IMG/VR virus record: IMGVR_UViG_3300046691_000407
Strand: one strand, 5' to 3'
Origin: an uncultured virus (IMG/VR IMGVR_UViG_3300046691_000407)
Lineage: Duplodnaviria; Heunggongvirae; Uroviricota; Caudoviricetes
Length of the DNA: 54,212 bases
In this document: in pieces, positions 9,638-40,317 of the stretch
How positions within the stretch are numbered: the first letter of the stretch is position 1
Layout: every line of letters starts with the position of its first letter
The notes under the pieces: generated by a model
Database searches by the model: none
Seen by the model: only the letters and a program-made list of their open reading frames with translations
What the model was told of the DNA's origin: nothing
Program-made: the position numbers and the translations under genes

Positions 9638-10327
9638 TCAGAGATCGCAGGATTCAGAAGGGCCTGAAGCCAGTTCGCTGTCAAAGGTGTCATTCTCAGG
9701 GTTGCTCAACCCGATCGTCTTCAGCACGTTCCTTCGCTCCATGAGCTGCGGAATGATGACGTGGCGCATCCAGTTGCGCTCGTGGACGGTGTCGGCGTTG
9801 CTCTCGTCCTCGATCCATTCGACCCGGCGGTTCCGCGCCTGGCGCTCGATCTCGTCCTTCGGCACCAAGAGGAACGGCCGATAGCGGTCGCCGCTGCGCT
9901 TGTTCATCCGCAGGCTGTCGTGCGGGTAGCCGCGCATGAGCCGCATCAGGACAGTCTCCACCTGGTCGTTAGCGTGATGGGCGGTCACCAAGAGCTCTTC
10001 TTCGTGCTTCACGGAGGCGAAGAACGCATACCGCTGGTCGCGCGCCTCGGCCTCGAGCGACTTCGCCGCCCTCATCGCTTCGGGGTCGCCCTCTGCCGAA
10101 AGAAATGCGATGCCGTTGCGGCCGCACCATTCGCGCGCGAGCTGCTCCTCGTTGCCCGCCGTCGGCCTCAGACGATGGTTGAAATGGGCCACGCGGAAGG
10201 GCTGCCTGCAGTTCCTGTTGAAGAAGTCGAGCATGAACATCGAATCCAAGCCACCGCTCACGCAGAGCAGGTATCGCTCCGATGTCGTGTTGATCTCGTC
10301 GATGATATCGCGCCAGCGAACCTGCAT
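9638..10327 (-). CDS. tilS: tRNA(Ile)-lysidine synthetase TilS-like, catalytic PP-loop domain only
   Basis: SGGLDS PP-loop, HFNHRLR, EAEARDQRY, TAHHANDQVETVLMRLMRG, RPFL, EDESN, RNWMRH. Confidence 0.85.
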   Translation of the reverse strand: MQVRWRDIIDEINTTSERYLLCVSGGLDSMFMLDFFNRNCRQPFRVAHFNHRLRPTAGNEEQLAREWCGRNGIAFLSAEGDPEAMRAAKSLEAEARDQRYAFFASVKHEEELLVTAHHANDQVETVLMRLMRGYPHDSLRMNKRSGDRYRPFLLVPKDEIERQARNRRVEWIEDESNADTVHERNWMRHVIIPQLMERRNVLKTIGLSNPENDTFDSELASGPSESCDL

Positions 10328-10543
10328 GTGTCCTTGCTCCACTTGTCAGGGGATAAGAGCACCTTTGCGCGCAACTTTCCAGCCTAATTGTTGACAATGG
10401 AATTGGCCGGGTCTAGCGACACCCAGAAGCAAGGGGCATTATGTCCTGAAAAACGAACGGAGTTTCAATGGGCAGACGCGAGATCGGGTGCAGGCGCGCG
10501 CTGAGTTTAACGTTGGGAGCGTGTGATGGATGCCGTGGCATCC

Positions 10544-13572: not shown

Positions 13573-13720
13573 GGAATTTCCTTGCTGCAAATCCAATTGG
13601 AATGATCCTCTCCCTTCGAGACGCTGACAAGCAGCAAGCGGGACAGATGCCACTCTCCCGGCAAGGATTCAGTTGTGCCATGTCGCGGCCGTGGCGAACA
13701 TCGGGCTGGAGGTACAAGGC

Positions 13721-14188
13721 ATGGACACGATCAGGCTCTATCACGGCACAACGAAGCGCTTCTCAGAATTCGCCACGAAGGGCGTGACGCCAAGGTTCGA
13801 CACCGGCGCTTACATCCTCGGGCACTATCTCACGGAATCGGAAAGCCATGTCATGGCCTACGCCCGCGGCCGCTGGGGCAAGGTCTATATCGTCGATGCG
13901 TCGTTCGAGGCCATGAAGACGGTGCCGCCGAGGCCTTCCGGCATCAGCGAGATCGACCGCATGCAGCTCGATTTCACTGAAGAGGACTTCGCCGAATACC
14001 GCAACGATCTCGTCGCCCAGGGCTATGACAGCGTCTGCTTCGAGACGGTCGACGGCTTCAACGAGTATGTCTTCCTCCATGCCGACCAGTCCGCATCGTG
14101 GAGTGCGTTCCAGCCGAGGAGTTCAAGGGGATCGAGCAGCCCGCGCTTGCGCTGTAAGACGGCATCGTACCGCAGCGATCCAAGCTAG
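13721..14188 (+). CDS. ADP-ribosyltransferase-like (ART-PolyVal type) protein with probable frameshift near 14090
   Basis: LYHGTTKRFSEF..GHYLT..AYA..GYDSV..EYVF. The alternative frame continues RIVECVPAEEFKGIEQPALAL to a stop at 14157. Confidence 0.6.
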   Translation: MDTIRLYHGTTKRFSEFATKGVTPRFDTGAYILGHYLTESESHVMAYARGRWGKVYIVDASFEAMKTVPPRPSGISEIDRMQLDFTEEDFAEYRNDLVAQGYDSVCFETVDGFNEYVFLHADQSASWSAFQPRSSRGSSSPRLRCKTASYRSDPS

Positions 14189-20383: not shown

Positions 20384-20581
20384 ATGCTCCGCGAAATCGA
20401 TCCCATCAGCGTCGTCGGCGTGGCAGCCGCGGCAGCGATCGCCATCTTCTTCCATCAGTGGGACAGGAGCCTGTCAGAATCCCTGAAGGATCCGGGCATG
20501 CGCACGCTCGTCGTGAAGCCTTCGGTGCCGGATGCGGCTCCGATGCGGTCGTTGAAGGAATCGCGTCCGTTCGCGCAATAA
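20384..20581 (+). CDS. Small membrane protein
   Basis: Hydrophobic ISVVGVAAAAAIAIFF. Confidence 0.45.
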   Translation: MLREIDPISVVGVAAAAAIAIFFHQWDRSLSESLKDPGMRTLVVKPSVPDAAPMRSLKESRPFAQ

Positions 20582-20663
20582 TTGTTGACAATGGAAGCTA
20601 CTGGTCTAAGTTCGCATGCAAGCGGGCAATCTGCCCCAAGGCATTCGAACAGGAGGTTCAGCA

Positions 20664-20891
20664 ATGGCGAAAAAGAAGGATGTCCTCGCTCTGATCAAGG
20701 CCGCGGTTCCGGTCGGCGAGGCGCGCGGCCTGCGTGAACTGGCAACCCAGCTCCGGACATCGATGAAGGCCGTCATCGACGAGGTCGAAGGCAGCTATGC
20801 CGGTCTCGACCTGCTTGTCGGAGTTCGCAGCAATGCGGGAGTGGCCTCGCTGCCGCGCCGCGATTGGCAAGTCGAACACTATCAGGCCTGA
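20664..20891 (+). CDS. Hypothetical protein
   Basis: AGGAGG RBS; TTGACA promoter at 20585. Confidence 0.7.
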   Translation: MAKKKDVLALIKAAVPVGEARGLRELATQLRTSMKAVIDEVEGSYAGLDLLVGVRSNAGVASLPRRDWQVEHYQA

Positions 20892-20903
20892 CGGCGAAGG
20901 AAC

Positions 20904-21149
20904 ATGTACATGCTTCAGCAGAAACTCCACTACGCGAAGGACTCTTCGGGCCGCGTCGTCTGTCTTGCGGACATGTCCGGCTACAAGCGCGGCGACCAGC
21001 AGAGCGAAATCATCGTGCTCTCAGCATCCGAGATCACAACGGAGACCGTCTTCCTGTGCAGCGGACAGGCCACTCTCGACGAAACTATGGAGCAGTACGG
21101 CTTGAGCGGCTTCACGTTGCATGAGGCTTCCGCCACCGTGACCCTGTAG
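20904..21149 (+). CDS. Hypothetical protein
   Basis: AAGGA RBS; directly follows the upstream gene. Confidence 0.6.
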   Translation: MYMLQQKLHYAKDSSGRVVCLADMSGYKRGDQQSEIIVLSASEITTETVFLCSGQATLDETMEQYGLSGFTLHEASATVTL

Positions 21150-21181
21150 GGCGAATCCTGATTTTCGCGACGAGCCGGCGC

Positions 21182-21211
21182 TTGACGCGCCTTTGCATTC
21201 TGCAATACCTT
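21182..21211 (+). promoter_or_regulatory. Promoter of RNA cassette 1 with TTGCA-N3-TGCAA palindrome
   Basis: TTGACG at 21182; TTGCATTCTGCAA at 21193-21205. Confidence 0.55.
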
Positions 21212-21217
21212 TGATCC

Positions 21218-21288
21218 AGACGAGATCAAACGCGTTGGGTTTTCACTGCAAATGAAACCGCCCCATCGCACTCCATCAGCACTCGTCT
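21218..21288 (+). ncRNA. Short Y-like hairpin RNA with anticodon-like loop CUGCAAA
   Basis: AGACGAG/CTCGTCT, GCGTTGGG/CCCATCGC and GGTTTTCA/TGAAACC helices; homologous to 22141-22213. Confidence 0.65.
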
Positions 21289-21440
21289 GTCTTCTCTGGC
21301 GATGTCGAAATCCTTGATTTTGGTCATCCACCGTGGGTCGCAGGTTCGATCCCTGCCCGGAGTCCGCTCCGGTAGCTCAGCGGGAGAGCAACAGTCCAAA
21401 GCCGATTTCAGCCTCAGCATTCGGCATCGCCAGAGAAGAC
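21289..21440 (+). ncRNA. yrlA: YrlA-like Y RNA (circularly permuted tRNA mimic), copy 1
   Basis: Terminal stem GTCTTCTCTGGCGATGTCGAA/TTCGGCATCGCCAGAGAAGAC encloses T-arm GCAGG-TTCGATC-CCTGC, acceptor stem closed by a TCCG loop, then D-arm TAGCTCAGCGGGAGAGC; near a Ro60 gene. Confidence 0.85.
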
Positions 21441-21506
21441 CCGACCTTTGTCGGTTGCGTCCGGGACATCGATCCTTGACCATCATCATTGATGGAGGGC
21501 GCATAC

Positions 21507-22076
21507 ATGACGAGACTTAGGGAACTTCTCAGCGACAAGCCGTTGCTGGCGGCATACGTGGCCGTCGCCGTTACCGCCATGGCCACCGGAACGCTCGCCT
21601 TCGACAAGATAGACAAGGTCGCCCGCATGATGGACGGCGAGCTCGTCACCGTATCCCAGGCGGTCAAGATGGATGGCCGCGCCAACGAGGCCGTCAAGAC
21701 GATGACGAGCTTGGTGGTGGGCTTGACGGATGCCGGGCAGATCAACGATGTGGCCGCCCTAAGGGACCGGCTACGGGAGGTCAGCAGCGAGCTTCACAGC
21801 ATCCATTACCCGCTGCCAGAAGGAAAGTCCGGCCGCTCTCCCGATCCTCTGGCGGTCTACGCCGACCAGCTCCAGGCGAAGGGCATCCAACTGCAGAACG
21901 CAATCTGGGCGCTGAATGTATGGGAGTTTTTGGCGGCGGACGGAAAACTTGACGCCGCTGAGAAGCAGCGGGACAAGCTCCTCGACATCCTCACAAAGGT
22001 GGATGGAGCCGCTGCTTCGGGTCGTGCGAGCGAAACCTTCACTTGGCAGGAAGTAGCCTTTTCTCCGAATCCTTGA
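21507..22076 (+). CDS. Hypothetical protein with N-terminal TM/signal segment, between the two RNA cassettes
   Basis: GGAGG RBS; LLAAYVAVAVTAMATGTLAF. Confidence 0.7.
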   Translation: MTRLRELLSDKPLLAAYVAVAVTAMATGTLAFDKIDKVARMMDGELVTVSQAVKMDGRANEAVKTMTSLVVGLTDAGQINDVAALRDRLREVSSELHSIHYPLPEGKSGRSPDPLAVYADQLQAKGIQLQNAIWALNVWEFLAADGKLDAAEKQRDKLLDILTKVDGAAASGRASETFTWQEVAFSPNP

Positions 22077-22095
22077 AAAACTTTCCGCCGGCCTC

Positions 22096-22124
22096 TTGCG
22101 CGACATTGCAAAATGCAAAATCAT
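22096..22124 (+). promoter_or_regulatory. Promoter of RNA cassette 2/rsr with TTGCA-N3-TGCAA palindrome
   Basis: TTGCGC at 22096; TTGCAAAATGCAA at 22106-22118. Confidence 0.5.
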
Positions 22125-22140
22125 AAGACTGTAATTGATT

Positions 22141-22213
22141 GAGACGAACTCCCTGGCGTTGGGTCATCACTTGAAATGATACCATCCCATCGCCGCCATC
22201 CAGCGTTCGTTTC
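22141..22213 (+). ncRNA. Short Y-like hairpin RNA with anticodon-like loop CUUGAAA
   Basis: GAGACGAAC/GTTCGTTTC, GGCGTTGGG/CCCATCGCC and GGTCATCA/TGATACC helices. Confidence 0.65.
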
Positions 22214-22381
22214 GTCAAGTTACGGAGACCGCGAAATCCTCGGATTCGGTTATCGCAATGGAAGCCGGCATACATGGGTTCGATTCCCATCCGCCCCGCC
22301 ATCTATGGGGAGGTAGCCAAGTGGTAAGGCACCGAAAATACCGATCCATCCCCGCCTTCGCGGCCTCCGTAAACTGACGAA
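22211..22381 (+). ncRNA. yrlA: YrlA-like Y RNA (circularly permuted tRNA mimic), copy 2
   Basis: Terminal stem TTCGTCAAGTTACGGAGACCGCGAA/TTCGCGGCCTCCGTAAACTGACGAA; T-arm ATGGG-TTCGATT-CCCAT, CCGCCCC-G-CCA, 5-nt linker, GGGGAGG, D-arm TAGCCAAGTGGTAAGGC; about 30 nt upstream of Ro60. Confidence 0.88.
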
Positions 22382-22412
22382 CGACGCGCACAATCCGAAA
22401 GGAATGGGACCC

Positions 22413-23993
22413 ATGTCCTACGCATCGCTCGTCGCCTCCACTCGTGTCTCCCAGAGGGAGCAGCTCAACGACCGCCAGATCCTCAACAACGCAGGCGGCT
22501 ACGTCTACGCGCTCGACATGTGGGCGCGTCTCGACCGCTTCCTGATCCTCGGATCCGACGCTCCGACCTACTACCAGTCGGCCCGGAAGCTGACCCGCGA
22601 AAACGCCCGGGTCGTCGAGGAGTGCTGGAAGGCCGACCACACCCGCACGGCGGAGCGCATCTGCGAGATCTCGGTCTCCGGGCGCGCGCCGAAGAACTCC
22701 CCGGCGATCTTCGCCATCGCGCTTGGCGCGACGCTCGATTCCGTCGACGTCCGACGCTCGGCGCTGGTGTCCGTGTCCCGCGTCTGCCGCACTGCGTCGC
22801 ATCTCTTCGAGTTCGCCTCGCTGCTCGACGCGCTCGGCCGGGGCTGGGGCCGCGCGGTCGCGCGCACGTTCGACAAGTGGTATGCGGACCGTTCGGTCGG
22901 CACGCTCGCGAACCAGATGACCAAGTACCGCAGCAGGAATGGCTACACGCATGGACGAGTCCTTCAGCGCGTGCATCCAAAGGTGGCCGAATCCGACCAG
23001 GAGCGTGTGGCGCTGATGCGCTGGGCGTGCGGCGGACGCATCGAGAACTACCCGCTGCCAGACAAGCTCGTCGGCCATCTCGCGGCAATGAAGACGGAGA
23101 AGGCTTCCGAGCTGGTGCCGCTCATCGAGCGGCATTCGCTCACGTGGGAGCAGGTTCCGACCTGGGCGCTGAAGGATGCGAAGGTCTGGGAGGCTCTCCT
23201 GCCGAACCTCGGCATGACGGCGCTGCTCAGGAATCTTTCGACTCTGACGGAGGTCGGCGTGGTAAAGCCGCTCGGCGGCCGCACGTCGGACATCGCCGAC
23301 CGCCTGTGCGACGCGGCTCTCGTCCGCGAGGAGAAGCTGCATCCGTATGCGATCCTCAACGCTCTGGCAGTCTACCGCCGCGGCAAGTCCGTGCTCGGTG
23401 ACCGCACGTGGAATCCGGTGTCGGCGATCAGCGACGCCCTCGACGAGGCATTCTACCTCGCCTTTGGCAACGTGGAGCCGACGGGCAAGCGCCATCTCCT
23501 TGCGCTCGACGTGTCGGGTTCGATGGGCACCAGCCTCATCGGCGGCATCCTGTCGGCACGCGAAGCTTCGGCGGCCATGTCGATGGTCACGGCGCGGTCG
23601 GAGAAGCATCACCACTTCGTGGGCTTCTCCTCCTCGATCGTCGATCTCAAGATCGGCGCGAGGATGAGCCTGCCGGAGGTCGAGCGCGTCATCTCGGATA
23701 TTCCGTTTCGCGGAACCGACTGCGCCGCGCCGATGCTGCATGCGATGAACAACGGGCTCGAGGTCGACGTCTTCGTCGTCTACACGGACAACGAGACCTG
23801 GCAGGGGCGCATCCACGCGTCCGAGGCGCTGAAGATGTACCGCAAGGCGACCGGTATTCCGGCGAAGCTCGTCGTGGTCGGCATGACGGCGACGAGCTGC
23901 TCGATCGCCGATCCGAACGATCCGGGGATGCTCGACATCGTCGGCTTCGATTCCAACGCGGTCTCCCTCATGGCGGATTTCGTCCGCTCATGA
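22413..23993 (+). CDS. rsr: Ro60/TROVE domain RNA-binding protein with vWA domain (Rsr)
   Basis: NNAGGY, RFLILGS..TYY, HLFEF, GWGR, KYRSRNGYTH, MTALLRNL, LHP, MIDAS DVSGSM, GTDC, YTDNETW, GMLDIVGFDS. Confidence 0.96.
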   Translation: MSYASLVASTRVSQREQLNDRQILNNAGGYVYALDMWARLDRFLILGSDAPTYYQSARKLTRENARVVEECWKADHTRTAERICEISVSGRAPKNSPAIFAIALGATLDSVDVRRSALVSVSRVCRTASHLFEFASLLDALGRGWGRAVARTFDKWYADRSVGTLANQMTKYRSRNGYTHGRVLQRVHPKVAESDQERVALMRWACGGRIENYPLPDKLVGHLAAMKTEKASELVPLIERHSLTWEQVPTWALKDAKVWEALLPNLGMTALLRNLSTLTEVGVVKPLGGRTSDIADRLCDAALVREEKLHPYAILNALAVYRRGKSVLGDRTWNPVSAISDALDEAFYLAFGNVEPTGKRHLLALDVSGSMGTSLIGGILSAREASAAMSMVTARSEKHHHFVGFSSSIVDLKIGARMSLPEVERVISDIPFRGTDCAAPMLHAMNNGLEVDVFVVYTDNETWQGRIHASEALKMYRKATGIPAKLVVVGMTATSCSIADPNDPGMLDIVGFDSNAVSLMADFVRS

Positions 23994-24523
23994 ACGCAGG
24001 GGATCTCGAGAGCGCCAGTCAGCTACTCTTTCCCGAACAGGGAAAGAACGCGCTGGCGGCCGCCCTCGGGATCGATCCCTCGACGCTCTGGCGATATGCG
24101 CAGCGTGGAAGGATCCCCGGCCCGGTAAGCGCCGCCGTCGCGTCATGGCTGGTGCTGAAGCGAGATTTCGACCTCGATCCTCCCGCAGAACCATGCTCGA
24201 CACGCGACATCGAGGAACTGGCGGAAATGGCGGATCCCGGCATCCGCAGGCGAAGCGGCCTTCTCGGCATCGAGGCGGCCGCTTCCGTTGTTTTCGGAGA
24301 AGGGTGGAAGGGCAAGCTGGCTTCGGCCCTCGGGGTCGACTACAGCACCATCTGGCGGCAGATCACCTCGGAGAACATCCAGGGGCCAGTCATGGCCGCC
24401 ATCAGGGCATGGACGGTTCTGACGCGGCTCGGCGGCACCCTCCCCGGCAATCCGGCGGATGCTCCCCGTAGCACCCGCCGGCAGACGCCGAAATACGCCA
24501 GGTTGCTGCTCGAGGACGACTAG
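23990..24523 (+). CDS. Protein with two tandem HTH-like repeats
   Basis: ATGA overlap with rsr; LAAALGIDPSTLWR..GPVSAAV and LASALGVDYSTIWR..GPVMAAI. Confidence 0.8.
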   Translation: MNAGDLESASQLLFPEQGKNALAAALGIDPSTLWRYAQRGRIPGPVSAAVASWLVLKRDFDLDPPAEPCSTRDIEELAEMADPGIRRRSGLLGIEAAASVVFGEGWKGKLASALGVDYSTIWRQITSENIQGPVMAAIRAWTVLTRLGGTLPGNPADAPRSTRRQTPKYARLLLEDD

Positions 24524-29548: not shown

Positions 29549-29865
29549 GGCATCATTGGCTGCGGCCGGCGGATCGGGAGACACAGAAGTGCCTCCCCTG
29601 GATGGCGATCTATAAGGTCCGTTACATCGAATCCTGCGAATTCCAAAGAAATTTTACTCGCGATAACTCATAAAATGAAACCTTCGGATCTGATGGGGCA
29701 ACCGTCGCGCCTTTCTATCCTGGTCTAAGGATTCGACCCGGATTGAAACAGCTTCTGTATGGATTCATGATACGGGACTCGCATTCTCGGCTTTGGGGGC
29801 CAGCAGAAATTATGAAACTGAAAAAGAACAACAGCGTAGCCATGTCCGAATCATTCCGCAGGACA

Positions 29866-32800
29866 GTGATTTCGAAGCATTTCTCCGCGCGGAAGGTATT
29901 GTCTTCAATCGTCGCAGCGACACTGGTGGCGACCTCTGCCGTTCCCGCATCCGCCGACAGCTTCTTCTTCCGCTACAAGCAGCCGGCCTCGTGGGCGCCG
30001 GGATCCGATCCTGAAATCCCCACCGATCCGCAGCTCGGGGTCGGCAACGACATCACGATCTTCTTCACGGGAGCCATCGGCATCCCGTTCTCCAAGCTGA
30101 TCCCGGTCAAGACCAAGGACGTTGCCGAGTGGAGGTTCCAGAGCGGAACCTTGCAGGATGGCTTGGGACTCGATCCCTCGACAGGCATCGTATCTGGCAC
30201 GCCGGGCGGAAAGACCACCCAGAAGAAGGCGGTGCTGGTCGGATACGACGTCGGCGGCCATCTGATCGCGCGCGCCGCGATCACCTCGCGCTTCCACAAT
30301 CCCGCGGGCCAGGCGACCGACTTCACCTTCTACGGCCACACGAACAAGTACATGTACCGCCAGATCCCGGCGACCGTTCCGATCGCCAAGTGGGAGAGCA
30401 TCGGCGACCTTCCGGATGACTTCCACACCGAGACACGCTACTTCGCAGGAACGCCGTCCCAGGAATACACGACGGGTGTCGGCTTCATCGGCTACGACTA
30501 CATGGACAAGGAGGTCGCGTTCACCTACGGCGACCTGATCGTTCAGGACACACCGGTCATCGAGCACATCGACGACCGGATCCGCCACCCGAGCAAAAAC
30601 TTCGTCGTCACACCGACCGTCCAGTACAGGATCGGTGAGCTGAAGTACCGTCTCGTGGCCCTCGACGGGAAGCCCGCGAGCACGGGATTCAACACGAAGA
30701 CCGGCCGCCTCTCGACGAGAATTCCGACCTTCAACACCTCGATGCGCTTCAAGATCGAGGTGACCGATGTGGATGGAGTTGTCGGATCCTCCAACGTCTT
30801 CAAGCTGACGACTGCGTCGCCTGACGTTGACATGGCGAACATGCGCAATCAGACCGGAACGGTCAACCAGGCATACTCCCTCCAGATCACGGGCAAGGAT
30901 CTGTCTGGCGACGTCAACTGGAAGGTTCTCGCGGGACAGCTTCCCGATGGCCTGTCGCTGGATGCCGAGACGGGCGAAATTTCCGGAATTCCGACCCGTG
31001 TCGAGACCAAGACAGGGATCGTCATTGGCGCCGTGACTTCTGATGGCGGAAGCGGCCAGACCCCGGCTTTCGACTTCACCATCTATCCTGAAGAGATCAG
31101 CGTGGCGTTCCAGCCCGTCGAGACGCGTGTCGGTCGGCCGTTCGTAACCGCAGGTCCGACAATGGGAACCGGCATCAAGTCTCCATTCTCGTTCGACCTC
31201 GCAGCGGGCGCCGTCCTCGATGACGCAATCTCCGTCGACTACGACACCGTCGTCGTATCCGGAACCGCCGAGACCGCCGGCGACTACTCGGTTCCGTTCG
31301 ACTTCACCAACGGCGACGGCCGTCAGAAGACCTTCGTCCAGCCGATCACGATCCACGACCTGCTGGCGCTCGAATACGAACCAGAGATCACGGTCTACCG
31401 CCGCACTCCTGTATCCGTGCAGCCGTCGTCGGTGGCGGGTGTGATCGGCGTGGGCGAGTTCAAGCTCACTTCCGGCACGCTTCCCAAGGGACTCAGCATT
31501 GATCCGTCCTCCGGCGACATTGTCGGAACCCCCGAAGAAATGGGCAGCGCAGTCGACCTTACCGTCACCCTGTCCGACGAGAGCGGCGAAACCATCGCCT
31601 CGAACGATTTCGAGATCGAGGTTCAGGACCGTCCTCCGGTCGAGGTCGCCGCAGCCGCGGTGCAGGTCGAGCGCTTTGTCGACAACGCCGTCACCACGAC
31701 GACTTCACAGAACGTCTATGATGGCGTGACCTACGAGCTGGTAGCAGGAACGCTGCCGGATGGTCTGACCTTCGATGAGGATGGTGTCATCCGAGGCAAC
31801 ACCCAGGAACTGGTCGGCGAGTACGGCGGCCTGCAGGTGCAGGCGACCGACGGTGAAGGATACGTTGGTCTAAGCCCGGTCTTCTCCGTCACCGTCATCG
31901 AGCCGAAGAACCTCGCTCCGCTCAACTTGGCGAACGGCACCTCCGATGTTGACGCGACATGGGCGGAAGACGTTCCGTTCGCCTTCGACCTCCCAGTGCC
32001 CGCCAACGCGTTTGGAACGGTTGCCTATGACTTCCAGGCTCTCCCCGATGGCATCGCCGTTGTCGGCGGCCAGCTCGTCGGAACGGTTGCGGAATCCGGC
32101 ATCTATGTCTTCCCGTTCACGCTGATCGATGACGCGCGCCGCACGCTCTCCGGCAACTTCACCTTGACGATCCTCGAGCCTATGAGCGCAACCCTTTCGG
32201 GGCGTGGAAAGATGGGAGACGAGGAGACTGATGATGTCTCGTTCGAGCTTCCGCGCGGCGGCGACACCATCATCTCGCCTGTCATCAAGGACGCGATCGG
32301 AAACGTCACCTACACCTACCAGGGCACGCTGCCGGACGGCCTCTCCTACGCCGACGGCAAGATCACCGGAAAGCCGACAACACAGGATCAAACGGGCGAG
32401 TTCACGCTCGTTCTGACTGACGAGGCGGGTTCGACGGTCAACCTTCATGCGAAGGTCCTGATCGGCGCCCGCGTTCCGCTGACACTCAGCTACGCCGTGC
32501 CGTCGCCTGCAGGATTCGTGGGCATCAGCATATCGCCGATCAAGCCCTCGGTCGTCGACTCCATCGGAGCAGTGACCTACACACAGCAGGGCGCGCTGCC
32601 TCCGGGCATTTCCTTCGACGGGAACACGGGCTACTTCTACGGTGTGCCGACGGAAGCCAACTGGTTCCAGGGCATCGAGGTGACGGCGACAGACTCCGAG
32701 GGTTCGAGCTTTGCCGGAACCTACGGGCCGGTCGCCATGGGCATCTCGATGAAGGGCAATCCGGTCGTGCCCGGCACGACCACCTTCACTGTCCGCGCAG

Positions 32801-35800
32801 GGGAGCCCTTCGTGCAGACGCTCGATGTGACCAACGCGATCAAGCCGGTCGTGTTCGGCACGCCGTCGGGCGATCCCCTGCCATACGGACTTACGCTCGG
32901 CCAGTTCGACGGCAAGATATCCGGAATGTTCCCGGCGGCGGGCAAGTATGTAGCCGGTGCCGTCACGGCGATCGACTCCTTCAGCCGCGAGAAGACGACC
33001 AACGTCAAGTTCGTCGCCGTCGGCCCTCTCGACATCGCAGCCCCGGCCACGACCACGTTCAACCAGTACTCGAGCGTTTCGGCGCAAAGCGTTGCAACGA
33101 ATGTGATTGGAACAGCGAAGTACGAGCTGGCTACCGGAACACTGCCCTCGTTCCTCTCCCTCAACCCGAACACCGGGTATATCGCGGGGCCCGCAGACAC
33201 GAAGGGTGTCTGGGGCGGTCTCACGATAAAGGTGACGGACTCCACCGGATCCTCCGCTTCGACCGACGCTTTCTCCATCGCCATCGGCGACAGGCTTCCG
33301 CTCGAGCTGAACACCGCCGACACCTACAACCTCGTCGCCAACAAGAACTACAAGCTGGCCATGCCTGTCGCCAACGCCGTTGGCGCGGTCACCTTCATCC
33401 AGACTGGAGCGCTGCCGGAAGGCATCTCCTTCGACGCAAAGGTGGGGCGGTTCTCCGGCGTTGCGAAGGTGATCGGATCGTTCCCCGTGAGCGTCACAGT
33501 GACCGACAGCGTGGGTGCGAGCGTCACGAAGGCCTTCTCGCTGGTGATCGACACGAACGGATATCCGATCAACCTGACCGTTACCGACTTTGTCACGAAG
33601 GTCGGCGAGCCAATCTCCACGAAGCTTCCGGTCTATTCGAACCATGTCGGAACCGTGCAGTTCTGGGCCGACGAGACGCTCGCGGACTACGGCCTGACGA
33701 TCGATCCCGACACGGGCGTGATCTCGGGCACCGCGACCCAGCTCATGGACTTCACACCGAACGTCAACATCTCCGACGCATCACTGCGCGTGACCTCCAA
33801 GCCCATCAGCATCAAGGTGGTTCCGGATCTGGTCGCGAATGTTCCGGCACGCATCGACCTTCCCGTGAACAAGCGGGTCTATCCCTACATGTATGTGTCC
33901 GCGGACAACGGCATCGGTGCGCTGGACTGGTCGATCGAGGGCACGCTGCCAAAGGGGCTTTCGTTCTCGACCAGGCTTCGCCGCTTTGCCGGAACGCCGA
34001 CCGAAATGGGAACCTTCCCGATCAAGCTGACCGTCGCCGAGCGTGATGGGTTCAAGCAGTCTTCGACGGTCGCCGTCGAGGTGGTTGTTGTCAGCGATGG
34101 AGTTGCGCCGACAGTGCGTGTCACGCCATCGACCGTCGGATACTACACGCATCAGAACTCCACCATCACCCCGGTGTATCAGAACGCCAAGACGGGGGAT
34201 GTGCTGGATCTTGCTCCGGACTCCGCGCCACTTCCTCCCGGCGTCACGTTCAGGAAGAACAGCTCCGGGGCCGACGTCCTCTACCACGCGGTCGGAGCAA
34301 CCACCGACGCGGGCATCTATCCCGGAATCAAGGTCAGGGTGACTTCCTCCGACGGTCTCTATGGCGATAGCGAGCCGTTCACGCTCGTCCTGAAGACGGC
34401 GTTCTCATACGAATACCGGAAGCTGGATGTTCGTGCTTACGACCCGGTATCCGTTCCAGCGCCCGCTCCAATCTCGGGCAAGCCTGTGGGTAACGTGACC
34501 TACTCGTTCGCCAGTGACTACTCCGGAGGAACGCTGAAAGTCGACCCTGTAACGGGCCTGCTCACGGGATATGTGACGAAGTCGGGATCGGTCTCGGTCC
34601 GCGTCACAGATACATACAACGGAGCCACTCTGCGATCCGTAACTTACGTCGTGACGTTCACGGCCAAGGTTCTCTCCGTGAAGACCCCTGCCCAGCAGGT
34701 GACGTTCACCGGCATCAACTACCCCAGCTACGTGACCACCATGACCAACGGAAGCCAGAACGCGGTCATGTCGCTCGGAGAACTCGTTCCTCCCGGCCTG
34801 AGCGTCGATCCGGTCACGGGAACGATCTCCGGCATCGCGACCACTGCCGGTGTGTACCCGACGACACTCGTCTACACGGATCCGAACCAGACGCTCGTCA
34901 CGCCATTCACGGCGACCGTCGAGCAGTCGGCCCCGGCAGGCAAGGGATACAAGTTCCTAAAGGTGGCGGTGACAAGCAGGAACGACCATATCAGCAATCT
35001 CTCAATCAGGAGTGCTTCCGGAAGCGACATCATGCACATGGTGTCGAAGGGCGCCGGAAACCTGTCCGTTGGCGTCTACAACCAGCTTGTAGGGCCGCAC
35101 AACGCCATTACGTTCCCGACGGGTGGCTTCCAGGAGTTCGAGCTGCCCACATATGTTGACAAGGGATCGATCGAGGCAAGAGGGCACGGATCCGCGACCG
35201 TCGTCTATTCGGCGTCCGTCGATGGCCAGACATGGGTAGAGATCGGCACCCAGGTCAACAGCGGCGCGCCCAAGGCATCCTTCCAGTTCAAGGAAGCCAC
35301 GGACCTCTTCGCCTTCAACGCCAACGCCATCACTCCGGCTCCGGCACAGGTTCCATACAGCTTCGATCTCAAGACGCTGGTCGATGCTTCGAGCCTCGAC
35401 GGCATCTCGGCATCGAACCTGGCGTGGACATGGTCGGTCGATCCCAACCGGGACACGTCCACCACCATGGCGACCCTGCCCGCAGGCATCTCCATAAGCG
35501 GTTCCACGCTGACAGGAACTCCGACAGTCGAGGGCACCTACGCCGTCGTTCTGAAGGGTGCCTACGGCGGCCGCTCGGTGTCGAAGGCGTTCCAGATCGT
35601 GGTTCCGGCTCCGGGACCTCTCTTCGTCTTCAACAGCACGGCCCTTCCACAGGGGATGGCCCAGTTCGCCTACAGCTTTGACATGAGGACGCTCGTCGAC
35701 GCCTCCACCCTGCAGGGCATCACGACCTCGAGCTTGAGCTGGACATGGGCGGCCGATCCCAACCGGAACACGTCCACGACCATGGCTGACCTGCCTGCAG

Positions 35801-37305
35801 GTCTCGCCATCAGCGGGGCCACGCTGCGGGGGACGCCCACGACCGAAGGCACCTATGCCGTCGTTCTGACGGGAACCTACGGCGGCCGCTCGGTATCCAA
35901 GTCGTTCCAGCTCGTAGTGACACCTCTCGTGGCATCGATGTCGCTGCAGGGTGCGACGCTGCAGTCTGGAGAACGCTGGGTGACACCGTTCAATGTGGAC
36001 ATGTTCCCCTACCTGACGGCTCCCGGAGTGACGCTTTCCGAAGTGAAGTGGACAGTCGTCACCTCCGGTGTCGTGGCACAGTCCGGCGAAGCGGTCGCGC
36101 TCCCGGCGGAACTTGCGCTTGGCAACACGACCGGAGCTATCACCGGAACGTCGAGCAGCGTCGGCAAGTGGAGATTTGCGATCAAGGCCACCTGGAAGAC
36201 CCTGTCTGCCCAGGCGGAGTATGTGATCGAGATCACCGGCGAACCAACCAACTACAAGTTCACAAAGCTCTCGGCCGGAGACAACTACACCTGCGGCATC
36301 ACCACTTCCGGTAAAGTCGCATGCTGGGGCAATGGTGGCAGCAACCGCCTTGGATACAACAATGCGACGAACTCGGCCGTCCCGGTGGATGTGGCCGGCA
36401 TTGCCAAGGACGCCTCCATGATCGCGCTTGGGACAGGAAGCGTGACCACATGCGCCACCACGTCGACGGGCGCGATGATGTGTTGGGGCGGAACCGGTGA
36501 AATTACCGGGATGTCAGGCCCCTACGCCCGCCTCTCTCCGAACTATGCTTCCGGTGTCACCGATATCGCGATGAAGTCGCAGCACGCCTGCTACATCACG
36601 TCTGGAGCGGTCAAGTGCCAGGGATGGAACGGCGACAGCATGGCGGTCGGCCTGTCTGCGTCCAACTACTGGGTGTCTTCGCCCAATACTCCATCCGGCC
36701 TCACCACCGGCTACAAGGAGGCGGCGGTTGGTACGGACCATAGCTGCGCATTGAGCACTGCTGGCGCGGTCAAGTGCTGGGGCTTGAGAACCAATGGCAG
36801 GCTGGGCAACGGCTCGATCGCGACCACGGCCGTCTCGGCCCCGGTCAACGTGACCGGGCTGACCTCTGGCGTGAAGGCGATCGCTGCGGGGGCCGACTTC
36901 ACGTGCGCCATCACTTCCGCAAGCGGGGTCAAGTGCTGGGGCAACAACAACAACGGCCAGATCGGCGACGGCAAGACCACGCAGGCCCCCGCCGCCGTCG
37001 ACGTCAATGGCCTGACCTCCAACGTCAAGGAGATCGCGGCCGGTACCAACCACGCATGCGCGCTCACCAATTCCGGTGCCGTCAAGTGCTGGGGCAACAA
37101 CGGGTATGGGAAGCTCGGCAACGGCTTGACCCTGACCTCGAGCGCTCCGGTCGATGTGGTCGGCCTTGACTCCGGGGTGGCCTCGATCACCGCTGGGGCA
37201 AACCACACCTGCGCACTGATGACCAGCGGCGACTACAAATGCTGGGGTCTGAACACCAGCGGCCAGCTCGGCGATGGCACGCTCGTCAACCGACCTACAC
37301 CGTAA
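29866..37305 (+). CDS. Giant secreted putative-Ig (He_PIG) repeat protein with C-terminal RCC1/BLIP-II-like repeats
   Basis: 2520-codon ORF from 29743, likely start GTG 29866 or ATG 29842. Signal peptide ends VPASA then DSFFFRY; many LPxGLSxDxxTGxISGTP repeats; C-terminal AGxxHTCA..VKCWGxNxxGQLGDG repeats. Confidence 0.93.
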   Translation: MISKHFSARKVLSSIVAATLVATSAVPASADSFFFRYKQPASWAPGSDPEIPTDPQLGVGNDITIFFTGAIGIPFSKLIPVKTKDVAEWRFQSGTLQDGLGLDPSTGIVSGTPGGKTTQKKAVLVGYDVGGHLIARAAITSRFHNPAGQATDFTFYGHTNKYMYRQIPATVPIAKWESIGDLPDDFHTETRYFAGTPSQEYTTGVGFIGYDYMDKEVAFTYGDLIVQDTPVIEHIDDRIRHPSKNFVVTPTVQYRIGELKYRLVALDGKPASTGFNTKTGRLSTRIPTFNTSMRFKIEVTDVDGVVGSSNVFKLTTASPDVDMANMRNQTGTVNQAYSLQITGKDLSGDVNWKVLAGQLPDGLSLDAETGEISGIPTRVETKTGIVIGAVTSDGGSGQTPAFDFTIYPEEISVAFQPVETRVGRPFVTAGPTMGTGIKSPFSFDLAAGAVLDDAISVDYDTVVVSGTAETAGDYSVPFDFTNGDGRQKTFVQPITIHDLLALEYEPEITVYRRTPVSVQPSSVAGVIGVGEFKLTSGTLPKGLSIDPSSGDIVGTPEEMGSAVDLTVTLSDESGETIASNDFEIEVQDRPPVEVAAAAVQVERFVDNAVTTTTSQNVYDGVTYELVAGTLPDGLTFDEDGVIRGNTQELVGEYGGLQVQATDGEGYVGLSPVFSVTVIEPKNLAPLNLANGTSDVDATWAEDVPFAFDLPVPANAFGTVAYDFQALPDGIAVVGGQLVGTVAESGIYVFPFTLIDDARRTLSGNFTLTILEPMSATLSGRGKMGDEETDDVSFELPRGGDTIISPVIKDAIGNVTYTYQGTLPDGLSYADGKITGKPTTQDQTGEFTLVLTDEAGSTVNLHAKVLIGARVPLTLSYAVPSPAGFVGISISPIKPSVVDSIGAVTYTQQGALPPGISFDGNTGYFYGVPTEANWFQGIEVTATDSEGSSFAGTYGPVAMGISMKGNPVVPGTTTFTVRAGEPFVQTLDVTNAIKPVVFGTPSGDPLPYGLTLGQFDGKISGMFPAAGKYVAGAVTAIDSFSREKTTNVKFVAVGPLDIAAPATTTFNQYSSVSAQSVATNVIGTAKYELATGTLPSFLSLNPNTGYIAGPADTKGVWGGLTIKVTDSTGSSASTDAFSIAIGDRLPLELNTADTYNLVANKNYKLAMPVANAVGAVTFIQTGALPEGISFDAKVGRFSGVAKVIGSFPVSVTVTDSVGASVTKAFSLVIDTNGYPINLTVTDFVTKVGEPISTKLPVYSNHVGTVQFWADETLADYGLTIDPDTGVISGTATQLMDFTPNVNISDASLRVTSKPISIKVVPDLVANVPARIDLPVNKRVYPYMYVSADNGIGALDWSIEGTLPKGLSFSTRLRRFAGTPTEMGTFPIKLTVAERDGFKQSSTVAVEVVVVSDGVAPTVRVTPSTVGYYTHQNSTITPVYQNAKTGDVLDLAPDSAPLPPGVTFRKNSSGADVLYHAVGATTDAGIYPGIKVRVTSSDGLYGDSEPFTLVLKTAFSYEYRKLDVRAYDPVSVPAPAPISGKPVGNVTYSFASDYSGGTLKVDPVTGLLTGYVTKSGSVSVRVTDTYNGATLRSVTYVVTFTAKVLSVKTPAQQVTFTGINYPSYVTTMTNGSQNAVMSLGELVPPGLSVDPVTGTISGIATTAGVYPTTLVYTDPNQTLVTPFTATVEQSAPAGKGYKFLKVAVTSRNDHISNLSIRSASGSDIMHMVSKGAGNLSVGVYNQLVGPHNAITFPTGGFQEFELPTYVDKGSIEARGHGSATVVYSASVDGQTWVEIGTQVNSGAPKASFQFKEATDLFAFNANAITPAPAQVPYSFDLKTLVDASSLDGISASNLAWTWSVDPNRDTSTTMATLPAGISISGSTLTGTPTVEGTYAVVLKGAYGGRSVSKAFQIVVPAPGPLFVFNSTALPQGMAQFAYSFDMRTLVDASTLQGITTSSLSWTWAADPNRNTSTTMADLPAGLAISGATLRGTPTTEGTYAVVLTGTYGGRSVSKSFQLVVTPLVASMSLQGATLQSGERWVTPFNVDMFPYLTAPGVTLSEVKWTVVTSGVVAQSGEAVALPAELALGNTTGAITGTSSSVGKWRFAIKATWKTLSAQAEYVIEITGEPTNYKFTKLSAGDNYTCGITTSGKVACWGNGGSNRLGYNNATNSAVPVDVAGIAKDASMIALGTGSVTTCATTSTGAMMCWGGTGEITGMSGPYARLSPNYASGVTDIAMKSQHACYITSGAVKCQGWNGDSMAVGLSASNYWVSSPNTPSGLTTGYKEAAVGTDHSCALSTAGAVKCWGLRTNGRLGNGSIATTAVSAPVNVTGLTSGVKAIAAGADFTCAITSASGVKCWGNNNNGQIGDGKTTQAPAAVDVNGLTSNVKEIAAGTNHACALTNSGAVKCWGNNGYGKLGNGLTLTSSAPVDVVGLDSGVASITAGANHTCALMTSGDYKCWGLNTSGQLGDGTLVNRPTP
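35305..35919 (+). repeat. Tandem duplication of a 105-aa Ig module (315-nt period)
   Basis: YSFD..TLVDAS..WTW..DPNRxTSTTMAxLPAG..EGTYAVVLxGxYGGRSVSKxFQ occurs twice. Confidence 0.85.
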
Positions 37306-37391: not shown

Positions 37392-38177
37392 TCAGATGTG
37401 TGCGATGAGACTTCCAAGAAACGCATCCAGTGGCGCGTAGTGACGCAGAAGCACGGCAGGCGTGAGCGCTGCGAGGTAGGCATCCGGTTCGAGGCGCTCC
37501 CAGTCGAGCCTCTTTCCTTCCCTCCTGAGCAACTCGGTGAAGACCGTGTTGAGACTGCGGCCGTTGCCGTCATAGAAGGGATGGTGGAAGGCCAGCTCGC
37601 CGTAGACGTATCCGAGGTTCGCCGCAACGAATCCGGGAGTAGCCGCTTCTGCCAAGACCGCTTCTGCCTCCTTCTTGACGAGATGCGGAAGATTGAACCG
37701 GACGGAGCCCCGCCCCACGGGGTGCTCGCGGATGCGGCCCGCCCATGTCGGAAACACAGCTCCGAAAAGCATGCCATGAACGCCAAGCCAGGCATCGAGA
37801 GTGACTGTCGGAACAGCCCGCAGGTGGATGATCGCAGGAGCCATTCCACAGCTTGTTGTGATGAATTCCAGCTTCTCGAGCTTGGACGGATCGGCTGTTG
37901 CCAGGCAGTTGCGCAGGATGCCGCGCGTCGCCCTGTCCCCGAAGGGATCCCAGAGCCGCCGCTGCTCGACTGCCGCGGCTGAGGTGTCATGGTGGACGGC
38001 GGCGAGATGCAGTGCCTCCTCGACTGGCATAGCTCCTGAAATGGCCTGCCGGGCGATGGTCTCGATCGCTTCGTCAGGTTCGAAGAATTCGATGCGGTTG
38101 AACTGCCGGGCGAGTGCGCTTGCCTCCGCCGAGATGCTTCCAGATGTCGTCAAGACTCGGTCTCCGATTGACCCCAA
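37392..38177 (-). CDS. Fic domain protein
   Basis: HPFYDGNGRS motif; LFGAVFPTWAGRIR. Confidence 0.85.
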   Translation of the reverse strand: MGSIGDRVLTTSGSISAEASALARQFNRIEFFEPDEAIETIARQAISGAMPVEEALHLAAVHHDTSAAAVEQRRLWDPFGDRATRGILRNCLATADPSKLEKLEFITTSCGMAPAIIHLRAVPTVTLDAWLGVHGMLFGAVFPTWAGRIREHPVGRGSVRFNLPHLVKKEAEAVLAEAATPGFVAANLGYVYGELAFHHPFYDGNGRSLNTVFTELLRREGKRLDWERLEPDAYLAALTPAVLLRHYAPLDAFLGSLIAHI

Positions 38178-38326: not shown

Positions 38327-39124
38327 TCAGGCGACCCGCAGGAGTTCATCCATTCTGTCGAGCAGCGATCCCCTGCCCCGGTCGTGGATGACGGGCTCTA
38401 TGGTCGAGACCGAGCCATCGCCGCTGGTCTGCAGGAATTCCACCTTCATCCGGTCGCGGTCGATGCACAGGAATGTCAGCCTGCCGCTCTCGTAGGCGCC
38501 GGTGTCGAGAGATATCCGGTTCTCGGTCACGACGGGAAGATCCCCCATCACGGAATGGCCGTGGATGACGGGCGGCATCCTCTCATCAATCCGGTCGAGA
38601 AAGCCGTCTGAAATCCACATGAGGTCGTGCGGATCCTGCTGGTCGAGGGGGAGATAGCCGTTGATGCCGGCATGGCATGCGACGAACGCCCCGTCCCGCT
38701 CCATGAAGCTTGCATTCCTCAGAAGCTCGACGTGATGGGGAAAGTCCTTCTTAATGGTGCGGATGAAGGGCTTCAGCTCGCCTCCGGGGTCGTAGGAGGC
38801 GCAGGTGTCGAAGCCGCCAGCCTGCTCGTACCAGAAGTCTGTTTTCCGCCGCGACGAGGTGCCGTCGAGTATCTCCAGCAGGAGATGGTCGTGGTTTCCC
38901 ATGATCGCGACCGAGCGCGGCCATTTCCGGATCGTCTTGCAGACGGCATCGAGAACGTCCTTCGTGCCGATGCCGCGGTCGATCAGATCGCCGAGGAAGA
39001 CCACGCGGGGCGATATCTCATCGTCGGCGCTCATCTCCTCGATCCTGCCAAGGACGCTCGCCAGGAGGCGATCCTGTCCGTGGACATCGCCGATGAAGAA
39101 GGACTTTCCGGTCATGTCAGGCAA
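38327..39124 (-). CDS. Metallophosphoesterase (PPP-type Ser/Thr phosphatase-like)
   Basis: GDVHG, GDLIDRG, GNHD, HAG, HGHS, DTGA. Confidence 0.92.
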   Translation of the reverse strand: MPDMTGKSFFIGDVHGQDRLLASVLGRIEEMSADDEISPRVVFLGDLIDRGIGTKDVLDAVCKTIRKWPRSVAIMGNHDHLLLEILDGTSSRRKTDFWYEQAGGFDTCASYDPGGELKPFIRTIKKDFPHHVELLRNASFMERDGAFVACHAGINGYLPLDQQDPHDLMWISDGFLDRIDERMPPVIHGHSVMGDLPVVTENRISLDTGAYESGRLTFLCIDRDRMKVEFLQTSGDGSVSTIEPVIHDRGRGSLLDRMDELLRVA

Positions 39125-40253: not shown

Positions 40254-40317
40254 GGGATGCTCCTGCTGCTGTTCCCTTGAGTTTCGCACCGCCGGAGGTT
40301 GTCCGACAAGGTCGATT

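Follow-up and report, generated by a model that had tools for sequence, protein, structure and literature searches.

The window analyzed here is a 54,212-nucleotide (nt) stretch of DNA from an uncultured virus (IMG/VR record IMGVR_UViG_3300046691_000407), and the system in question is its Ro60/Rsr gene (22404–23993, + strand, 529 amino acids [aa]) together with the small RNAs that appear to be encoded in front of it. Reading of positions 20400–23400 reveals two tandem cassettes upstream of the gene, both on the + strand, and each of them runs from a promoter-like stretch through a hairpin of 71–73 nt into a YrlA-like RNA of ~150–185 nt. The gene product is identified by Pfam vWA_Ro60 (3.7e-66) and TROVE (7.4e-36) and by PHROG 850, "RNA-binding protein" (5.7e-79), as well as by the NCBIfam model Rsr, at 465.5 bits and under the equivalog cut-off of 900. 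The anatomy of the cassettes and their linkage to Ro60 can be read directly from the DNA: both hairpins share the strand of the gene and lie at most 1.2 kb from it, the nearer one ~190 nt upstream, and positions 21218 and 22213 are the outer-stem ends of the two. On the features described below, the hairpins appear to be genuine small Y RNAs and putative partners of Ro60, and the tip that each of them carries is probably an anticodon-arm look-alike, offering a shape handle to a factor that grips anticodon arms.

Short Y RNA a (21218–21288, +) is built from a lower stem AGACGAG/CUCGUCU, an upper stem GCGUUGGG/CCCAUCGC, and an apical stem UUUCA/UGAAA, which closes the 7-nt loop CUGCAAA (21246–21252, +) with GCA as its middle triplet. 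Similarly, short Y RNA b (22141–22213, +) combines a lower stem GAGACGAAC/GUUCGUUUC, an upper stem GGCGUUGGG/CCCAUCGCC, and an apical stem AUCA/UGAU with the 7-nt loop CUUGAAA (22170–22176, +), whose middle triplet is UGA. The two hairpins are paralogous and share a lower stem with a Ro60-binding-type motif, an upper stem (GCGUUGGGU/CCCAUCGC), an apical stem of 4–5 bp, and a loop of 7 nt. A preliminary description of this DNA had read the loops as CU-GCA-AA and CU-UGA-AA, each closed by CA/TG within a conserved scaffold and differing at the anticodon positions only. The sequence bears this out, as the two loops differ from each other at loop positions 3 and 4 only, position 5 being A in both, and the scaffold GCGTTGGGT-N(10–30)-CCCATCGC occurs exactly twice in the window (21232–21269 and 22156–22193) and in none of 100 dinucleotide-preserving shuffles.

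An 81-nt stretch of each element folds into the same three parts, namely, an outer stem, the scaffold helix, and an apical hairpin, with −20.1 kcal/mol for a (z −2.40, 4 of 200 shuffles as good) and −25.4 kcal/mol for b (z −3.08, 2 of 200 shuffles as good). On a 10-sequence alignment (A1), 91.5% of the cells in the lower (nine pairs) and upper (eight pairs) stems are paired, compared with 85.5% in shuffles, none of 500 reaching the observed value, and 32–53% when the partners are slid. Stem covariation is also directly visible, as both partners have changed in 4 of the 17 stem pairs, among them G-C/A-U swaps at two pairs of the lower stem, a count that 49 of 500 shuffles reach. The lower stem holds GACGAA in b and GACGAG in a, which agree in part with the 5′-strand motif of the type GNCGAA(N0-1)G proposed for Ro60 recognition (Chen 2014, PMC4201824), the trailing G being absent in both. 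The upper stem and its exit, UGGGUYAUC...CCCAUCG, coincide with the consensus of the nematode stem-bulge RNAs (sbRNAs), which are Y RNA homologues, as given in Rfam, where the sbRNA consensus UGGGUUAUC...CCCA equals the upper stem of the window.

The apical loop in relatives of the locus

Loci related to the window were collected through their Ro60 genes. They comprise Pararhizobium sp. BT-229 (L001, Ro60 75% identical; L009 is a duplicate of it), three metagenomic loci (L003, 93%; L004, 83%; L005, 73%), the R. leguminosarum plasmid pRlX5 (L018, 61%), the Bosea plasmid pANAM02 (L019, 53%), seven other genomes of the order (L011–L017, 40–50%), three distant loci (L002, L006, and L007, 41–43%), and 79 viral-contig loci (L249–L327, 40–51%). 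The two-cassette layout recurs in the same order in L001, L003, L004, and L005. We refer to the loci with Ro60 73–93% identical, together with the metagenomic variant X24 (~90–93% identity), as close relatives, and we number loop positions 1–7 as tRNA positions 32–38, so that the triplet corresponds to 34–36.

In the close relatives, the loops of hairpins a and b read CUUCAAA and CUUGAAA in L003, CUGCAAU and CUCGUAA in L001, CUGCAAA and CUUUUAA in L005, and AUUAUAG and CUUUGAAAAA (10 nt) in L004. Those of X24, CUGCUAA and CUUCAAA, were deduced from two entries, 21250 A>T and 22173 G>C, of a difference table that displayed 16 of 17 differences in a and 12 of 15 in b. With the window included, 9 of the 12 loops are CU-NNN-AA. 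Among the 11 loops of 7 nt, C32 is found in 10, U33 and A37 in all 11, and A38 in 9, while seven distinct triplets occupy the middle; the frame of a pyrimidine at 32, U33, and a purine at 37 is present in both window loops and in 10 of the 11 seven-nt loops. The expectation of the preliminary description that only loop positions 3–5 vary among homologues is thus largely borne out, and its assumption of conserved CU/AA flanks and loop length fares alike: the pattern recurs in distant Ro60 loci, as described below, but it is not universal, given the 10-nt loop of L004 and the loops of L018 and L019, which retain the 7-nt length and U33 but not the full frame. Hairpin a has an apical stem of 5 bp (UUUCA/UGAAA), that of b has 4 bp and an additional C-A mismatch, and those of the relatives have 3–5 bp.

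Three side observations concern the same loops. A second type of tip recurs at 2755–2788 of L004 (CUUUGAAAAA) and at 2408–2440 of the viral contig L268 (CUUGAAAAU), with loops of 9–10 nt on a 3-bp stem, and it possibly arose from CUUGAAA by expansion. A kissing interaction of loop a with loop b was considered and set aside as coincidence, as perfect 5-nt complementarity occurs in L003 only (UUCAA/UUGAA) and not in the window, L001, or L005. Likewise, a T-loop reading of the 7-nt loop was rejected because the T-loop frame does not fit; only UUCAAAC of L018 resembles a T loop.

To describe the tip across all 92 Ro60 loci, we used an explicit descriptor, in which a module GNCGAR-N(0–18)-GGUYWYC is followed by a 7-nt loop that begins 6–12 nt after the GG and is closed by a stem of 3 or more pairs; minimum free energy (MFE) folding of 32-nt pieces is unstable for A-U-rich stems of 4 bp. 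The 92 loci hold 99 distinct modules, a list that includes some false members, and in 39 of these, a hairpin with a 7-nt loop is present, while another 4 modules are T arms. The hairpin always starts directly 3′ of the conserved GGUYAUC. C32 is present in 27 of the 39 hairpins, U33 in 31, A37 in 28, and A38 in 25, with entropies of 1.32, 1.00, 1.30, and 1.41 bits at positions 32, 33, 37, and 38, against 1.76, 1.91, and 1.85 bits at positions 34–36. CU-NNN-AA loops come from 14 loci, and 24 of the 39 hairpins are YU-NNN-R. The triplets seen include GUU, which is the commonest and occurs in at least five lineages, GCA, GCU, UGA, UGU, UUU, CGU, CAU, GUA, CCA, and CAG. Apical stems covary from lineage to lineage around constant loop flanks (UUUCA/UGAAA, UAUC/GAUA, UCUG/CAGA, ACCGA/UCGGU, and UCUAA/UUAGA). 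A looser motif yields 142 modules, of which 20 are CU-NNN-AA, compared with 0.18 in shuffles (maximum 2 in 200), and it favors the 7-nt loop, with 68 modules vs 33–43 for lengths 4–6 and 8–10 and a shuffled mean of 29.5 (maximum 42). As a background, 106 of 5510 (1.9%) of the hairpins in these loci with a 7-nt loop and at least 4 pairs are CU-NNN-AA; 20 of these 106 stand in Y RNA context, and some others lie in tRNA genes (tRNA-Trp at 4738 of L006 and tRNA-Cys at 1499 of L312). A constrained loop frame around a free triplet, recurring across lineages, is thereby directly observed.

These data bear first on the possibility that the hairpins are ordinary short Y RNAs with an indifferent tip that caps the upper stem, the anticodon likeness being coincidental. 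CU would then be the tail of a GGUUAUC(CU) motif, and the A-rich 3′ side would be an effect of stability or composition. If so, all seven positions should drift, whereas positions 32, 33, 37, and 38 are held and 34–36 are near random in 39 hairpins from many lineages and on different stems, and neither the preference for 7 nt (68 modules vs 33–43) nor the ~100-fold excess of CU-NNN-AA over shuffles would be expected. We therefore regard both the indifference of the tip and this origin of its letters as rather unlikely, even though the apical 5′ strand lies within the general YUAY motif described for YrlA (PMC4201824), L001 and L005 each have one and the same stem in paralogues a and b, and distant relatives carry other loops.

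Several observations weigh against a tip that resembles an anticodon arm, a reading that we hold to be probable. In the wide scan, just 17 of the 39 hairpins are CU-NNN-AA, and position 36 is A or U in 16 of these 17, so the middle is not wholly free. The apical stem has 4 bp in b and in most relatives, vs 5 bp in tRNA. L004 has AUUAUAG and a 10-nt loop, and the loops of L018 (CUUUGGU and UUCAAAC) and L019 (UUUGCCA) include no CU-NNN-AA (0 of 3). Farther away, there are short Y RNAs with pyrimidine-rich loops of 6 nt (UCCCCC in L011 and CUCCUU in L012), and no clean hairpin is seen at 4807 of L002 or 2769 of L007. The sequences share descent, so that independence is overstated by the shuffle tests; the table of differences behind the X24 variants was not displayed in full; and MFE folding of isolated 32-nt pieces often missed the A-U-rich hairpin. 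In addition, the short RNAs of the window match no Rfam family, Y_RNA included, at E up to 10, and Chen 2014 (PMC4201824) places this position in the variable arm rather than in the anticodon arm.

The preliminary description had gone further and proposed that the exchangeable loop is a decoy or sensor for anticodon nucleases. In this account, enzymes of the PrrC, VapC, colicin, or HEPN type would cleave the Ro60-bound hairpin, sparing the real tRNA or signaling damage, and the triplet would be swapped in an arms race; more broadly, the Ro60 of phages and mobile elements would carry a swappable anticodon-arm bait, its triplet under diversifying selection, that titrates or senses anticodon-directed enzymes, with the YrlA-type RNA as the elbow. 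We consider the specific and the broader form alike improbable. Triplets do differ between near-identical relatives (GCA/UGA in the window, UCA/UGA in L003, and GCU/UCA in X24, at ~90–93% identity), but hairpin a of the window and that of L003 differ at 9 of 71 positions, all but one unpaired and one in the triplet. The change at 1 of 3 triplet sites vs 8 of 68 other sites, 7 of those 8 being unpaired, is no faster than at other unpaired positions. The triplet thus behaves as a free unpaired site, and the actual signal lies in the four flank letters and the stems, which are held. UCA, moreover, is no ordinary sense anticodon. Real tRNAs with G36 usually have G37, and A37 is retained in the loop of L007 that has G at position 36. 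The stems copy no particular tRNAs, because UYAUC, their 5′ strand, belongs to a motif of Y RNAs in general and the two paralogues of L001, like those of L005, do not differ in the stem. The phage-like accessory neighbors of the locus (an ADP-ribosyltransferase, a Fic protein, an ADP-ribosylglycohydrolase, a TilS N-domain, and a Pnkp-like phosphatase) would suit a conflict over tRNA, as would the Salmonella rsr–Y RNA operon, which includes RtcB and RtcA and responds to tRNAs nicked in the anticodon loop (PMC7790460, PMC10159003). However, no nuclease, RtcB, or RtcA gene was found among 27 neighbors (PADLOC) or in Pfam scans.

The long RNAs and known Y RNAs

Long Y RNA a (21289–21440, +) begins without a gap after short RNA a (21288/21289) and comprises a closing stem GUCUUCUCUGGCGAUG/CAUCGCCAGAGAAGAC, the motif GUCGAAAUCC, a T arm, a closed acceptor-like hairpin, and a D arm, with a predicted fold of −61.9 kcal/mol (z −4.51); by eye, only a 3-bp/3-nt stub stands at the apical position. 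The closing stem of long Y RNA b (22203–22387, +) is formed by 22203–22227 with 22365–22387, a pairing likewise made by eye. The Rfam YrlA model aligns to 21333–21392 in a (38 bits, E 2.2e-6) and to 22266–22336 in b (21 bits, E 0.18), both under its gathering score of 69, and the alignment covers only the T–acceptor–D core (model positions 23–87). The long RNAs to which the elbow had been assigned are therefore real, albeit at subthreshold scores, and the statement that YrlA lacks an anticodon arm agrees with the YrlA structure preprint, which describes YrlA without an anticodon loop (10.1101/312249). The long RNAs would thus work like YrlA in a divergent form. In the window as a whole, ARAGORN found no tRNA, Rfam gave no tRNA match, and nothing reached Rfam gathering thresholds.

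We built a model (R1) from the short RNAs only, leaving the tip unconstrained. R1 scores 77.3 bits for a and 80.1 bits for b and recovers two further short copies in L018 (at 53.7 and 51.4 bits) as well as a single copy in L019 (22.7 bits). A T-arm-bearing RNA of L018 is matched too (23.1 bits, E 1.2e-4), the alignment having an insertion of 52 nt precisely where the apical hairpin would be; short and long RNAs are thus paralogues that share a scaffold and differ in their tips. Inspection by eye shows that the long RNAs also have the 5′ string of the short RNAs (GUCGAAAUCC...UUUUGGUCAUCC vs GACGAGAUCA...CGUUGGGUUUUCA).

In cassette 2, positions 22205–22213 are both the 3′ strand of the lower stem of short RNA b and the start of the closing stem of long RNA b, so that two folds compete, as seen in a fold of 22130–22395 and by eye. 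The partner that lies upstream, GAGACGAAC, nearly repeats the one downstream, CUGACGAACG, and no covariation decides between the upstream and downstream pairings of 22205–22213. The double pairing could be a conformational switch or a processing determinant. These mutually exclusive pairings, together with the zero gap in cassette 1 and the fact that no promoter is seen between short and long RNA, would be expected if the short hairpins were 5′ leader, processing, or attenuator structures of the long transcripts, with a switch in cassette b. We judge this very unlikely, because the short element is a full Y RNA scaffold with compensatory changes. Moreover, one short copy of L018 comes after the long RNA and is followed, by eye, by a GC-rich hairpin and a T run, so that a transcript can terminate with this unit; modules of the short type form arrays by themselves in L249, L251, L306, and others; and YrlA and YrlB of M. 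smegmatis are cut from one precursor (Chen 2014, PMC4201824), a case to which the abutting short and long units of the window can be likened.

Hairpin and elbow also occur within single molecules. A T-arm motif follows at most 75 nt after the hairpin in 8 of the 39 cases, with short linkers (4–7 nt in some) seen by eye in L263, L274, L302, and L312. The Rfam tRNA model, at 24.7 bits and thus under its gathering score of 29, places UACCA-CUGUUAA-UGGAG of L263 in the anticodon arm and AGGUU in the variable loop; the same RNA scores 47 bits with YrlA. In L302, a tRNA-shaped RNA at 2165–2287 with open acceptor ends scores 43.4 bits with the Rfam tRNA model, while ARAGORN finds none there; a 63-nt insert between its D and T arms contains a loop-closed Ro60-type stem and the hairpin CCA-AUGCAAA-UGG, and its arrangement is a circular permutation of the YrlA layout. 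Such cis forms lend an evolutionary logic to the split tRNA mimic of the preliminary description, in that one window paralogue would keep the hairpin and the other the elbow. A true split mimic, whose short (anticodon arm) and long (elbow) RNAs dock in trans or on two Ro60 rings, is nevertheless scarcely credible, because each RNA closes on itself with its own Ro60-type stem, as paralogous Y RNAs would, and neither complementarity nor covariation between short loop and long RNA is seen by eye (window–L003), for all that L263, L274, L302, and L312 hold both parts in one phage Y RNA, long RNA a has only the 3-bp/3-nt stub at the hairpin position, short and long RNAs are always co-encoded in the clade of the window, and a Thermus phage Ro60 dimerises on a Y RNA-like RNA (PMC12135203).

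Comparison with published Y RNAs places the hairpin at a known site. Chen et al. model the site of this hairpin as the variable arm ("V") of tRNA and the Y stem as its anticodon stem (PMC4201824), so the hairpin occupies the published "V" site and is known as a structural element. In the "V" stem-loop of YrlA (RF02553), mycobacteriophage ET08 has GGTTACCTC-ATTGAAA-GAG (seed alignment, PMC4201824 supplement). The short RNAs of the window differ from YrlA in that the T, acceptor, and D arms are absent and this hairpin alone remains. Their loop fits the anticodon-loop consensus, a point not made in PMC4201824. Full-text searches, with some reviews outside their coverage, did not find the anticodon-loop frame of this loop in print; nor did they find whole small Y RNAs that consist of this hairpin on a Ro60 stem, and among the literature search results no publication joins "anticodon-like" with Y RNA or Ro60.

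The short Y RNAs of other bacteria (S. Typhimurium YrlB, M. smegmatis YrlB, and D. radiodurans Yrn2; PMC4201824) are likewise a second, shorter Ro60-linked RNA beside a tRNA-like Y RNA, and they also fold into a long hairpin that has a GNCGAA-type motif close to the 5′ end and a small loop at the apex. However, their loops are pyrimidine-rich, and an anticodon-like 7-nt loop is not mentioned (PMC4201824). YrlB has BLAST homologues in S. enterica only (PMC4201824), and we claim no sequence membership for the window RNAs, which, unlike bacterial YrlB and Yrn2, have the metazoan/sbRNA-type upper stem UGGGUYAUC/CCCA. Eukaryotic Y RNAs and nematode sbRNAs (RF01656) share the lower stem, a bulge or internal loop, the upper stem UGGGUUAUC...CCCA, and a variable loop, but the loops of eukaryotic Y RNAs are large and not anticodon-like; short RNAs on the same scaffold in L002, L007, and L302 match RF01656 with 30–49 bits. 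The anticodon arm of tRNA, in turn, has the same 7-nt C32-U33-NNN-A37-A38 loop, "CUuauAA" in the Rfam tRNA consensus, on a short stem, whereas the window tip has a stem of 4–5 bp that is shared by paralogues, lacks an acceptor end, and is tied to Ro60 rather than to translation.

Promoter-like sites and surrounding genes

The promoter-like stretches were recognized by eye as a TTGAC/TTGCG-type hexamer followed by a 17-nt spacer that encloses the palindrome TTGCAnnnTGCAA. That of cassette 1 (21183–21214, +) has TTGACG, a 17-nt spacer with the palindrome TTGCATTCTGCAA (21193–21205), and an ATACCT hexamer resembling a −10 element, whereas that of cassette 2 (22097–22127, +) has the palindrome TTGCAAAATGCAA at 22106–22118. 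A simple sigma-70 scan found no site at these stretches, and neither a sigma-54 promoter nor an alpha-proteobacterial LexA box, compared by eye with their consensus sequences, fits the palindrome. The perfect palindrome TTGCAnnnTGCAA has exactly two copies in the window, each preceding a cassette, and exactly two per locus, always ahead of a cassette, in L001 (2345–2357 and 2698–2710), L003 (1780–1792 and 2695–2707), L004 (2404–2416 and 2711–2723), and L005 (1039–1051 and 1372–1384); none was found in the other Ro60 loci examined to that point. The palindrome looks like a dedicated operator of the cassettes. Directly 3′ of Ro60 lies a gene for a protein with two helix-turn-helix (HTH)-like repeats in tandem (approximately 23996–24523, +, the start codon not being fixed; Pfam HTH_17 1.1e-4, below the cut-off), which is found at the same place in L003 (83%), L004 (66%), L001 (55%), L018 (44%), and L019 (38%) and is annotated as DUF433 in Bosea. 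As a pseudo-dimeric DNA binder beside a private dyad operator, this protein is a natural candidate for a repressor of the Y RNA promoters, and we infer that it could act through the palindromes. Between the cassettes, an open reading frame of 195 aa without a family match (21489–22076, +) is present only in the window and L003 (57% identity) and is absent between the cassettes of L001, L004, and L005.

The window has 61% G+C and is rich in accessory genes of phage-like type, few of which have family matches. Neither a capsid nor a terminase gene was identified among the open reading frames tested, and so its phage nature is putative. A protein of 234 aa at 9638–10342 (−) matches TIGR02432 with 155.5 bits (cut-off 93.6) and consists of the N-terminal PP-loop domain of TilS only, that is, the domain of an anticodon-modifying enzyme, tRNA lysidine(34) synthetase, without the tRNA-binding C-terminal part, in a window that has no tRNA gene. 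A metallophosphatase (38327–39124, −) can be aligned to models of phage NinI-like, "RNA ligase", and bacterial Pnkp proteins over their phosphatase part; its neighbors are a 390-aa protein without a match and a D123-type ATP-grasp protein (39117–40289, −, and 40318–41088, −), and the three could be an RNA-end healing or repair set. Giant proteins with He_PIG Ig-like repeats are encoded at 1–3882 (−; >1293 aa, cut by the window end) and 29743–37305 (+; 2520 aa), the latter with RCC1 repeats at its end and a weak tail-protein match. Furthermore, the window encodes an ART-PolyVal ADP-ribosyltransferase (13673–14188), a Fic protein that matches PADLOC PDC-S04 (37392–38177), an ADP-ribosylglycohydrolase (41806–42624), and a glutaredoxin.

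The source of the window is a rhizosphere metagenome, and the sequence is present in 22 DNA runs; no RNA run carrying it is listed among 24 runs. Run X24 carries the label RNA-Seq together with the flag "probably DNA", and both cassettes fall within its contig of 3965 nt, which makes the run uninformative on transcripts. Relatives of the cassettes lie on rhizobial plasmids and a chromosome contig. A Ro60 search of 401 genomes of the order of genome G001 gave 8 with a match, G001 included, and in 401 genomes of its family, G001 alone matched. A blastn search of 21150–22420 against phage and plasmid collections returned just short tRNA-like matches (one Enterococcus phage and one Nonomuraea), and a scan of viral contigs with a single Ro60 protein found no relative. 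Scaffold matches obtained in viral contigs by DNA pattern (119 and 110 stretches) were dismissed as chance, the best R1 score among the 80 loci taken from each having an E of 0.067. In three genomes of the order, arrays of four to five Y RNA modules lie upstream of Ro60 (L011 786–1425, L012 780–1425, and L013 520–1440) on the scaffold GGGCCGGAG...GGUUAYC with tips that are all different; the fourth module reads CUUUUAA in L011 and CUGCUAA in L012, differing only in the middle of the loop. In the viral contigs L268, L312, L286, and L323, Ro60 and its Y RNAs are embedded in tRNA gene clusters, with at least 12 Rfam tRNA matches within 6.6 kb in L268.

Proposed role of the tip

Mimics of the anticodon arm are known from the thrS operator, the tRNA-like structure of turnip yellow mosaic virus, and tmRNA–SmpB. 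In the arrangement that we propose, each cassette would be transcribed from its own promoter, which carries the private palindromic operator, and the transcript would contain the short Y RNA followed without a gap by the YrlA-type Y RNA, either as a precursor for later cleavage or as one tandem RNA. Ro60 would be bound by the lower stem (GNCGAR) and upper stem (UGGGUYAUC/CCCAUCG) of the short RNA. The tip of this RNA, the "effector" end, would adopt an anticodon-like U-turn, with C32, U33, A37, and A38 kept and the middle three positions drifting, and would offer a hold to a factor that recognizes anticodon arms by their shape and leaves the triplet unread, thereby complementing the elbow (T/D/acceptor) look-alike on the long RNA. 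The arrangement is consistent with work in which Y RNAs bind Ro60 by their stem while the other end tethers an effector such as PNPase (PMC4201824, 10.1101/312249) and with a phage Ro60 whose ligands are host PNPase and two upstream Y RNA-like RNAs (PMC12135203).

It is known that Y RNAs of bacteria mimic the elbow of tRNA, with its T, D, and acceptor arms, and structural work has stressed that the anticodon loop is missing. Should the tip prove indifferent, the hairpins would still be small Y RNAs that are new, linked to Ro60, and equipped with an operator of their own and a candidate repressor, and should they act as bait, Ro60 would be a platform for tRNA-targeted conflict. If the loop frame is functional, as we consider probable, tRNA mimicry by Y RNAs would be more complete than has been appreciated, and the frame would give a concrete lead to the binding partners of Y RNA effector ends. 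Ro60 would also be linked with the biology of anticodon loops, a connection hinted at by the response of the rsr–rtcBA operon to nicked tRNAs. Cultured rhizobia carry the same cassettes (L001 and L018), which makes these ideas directly testable.

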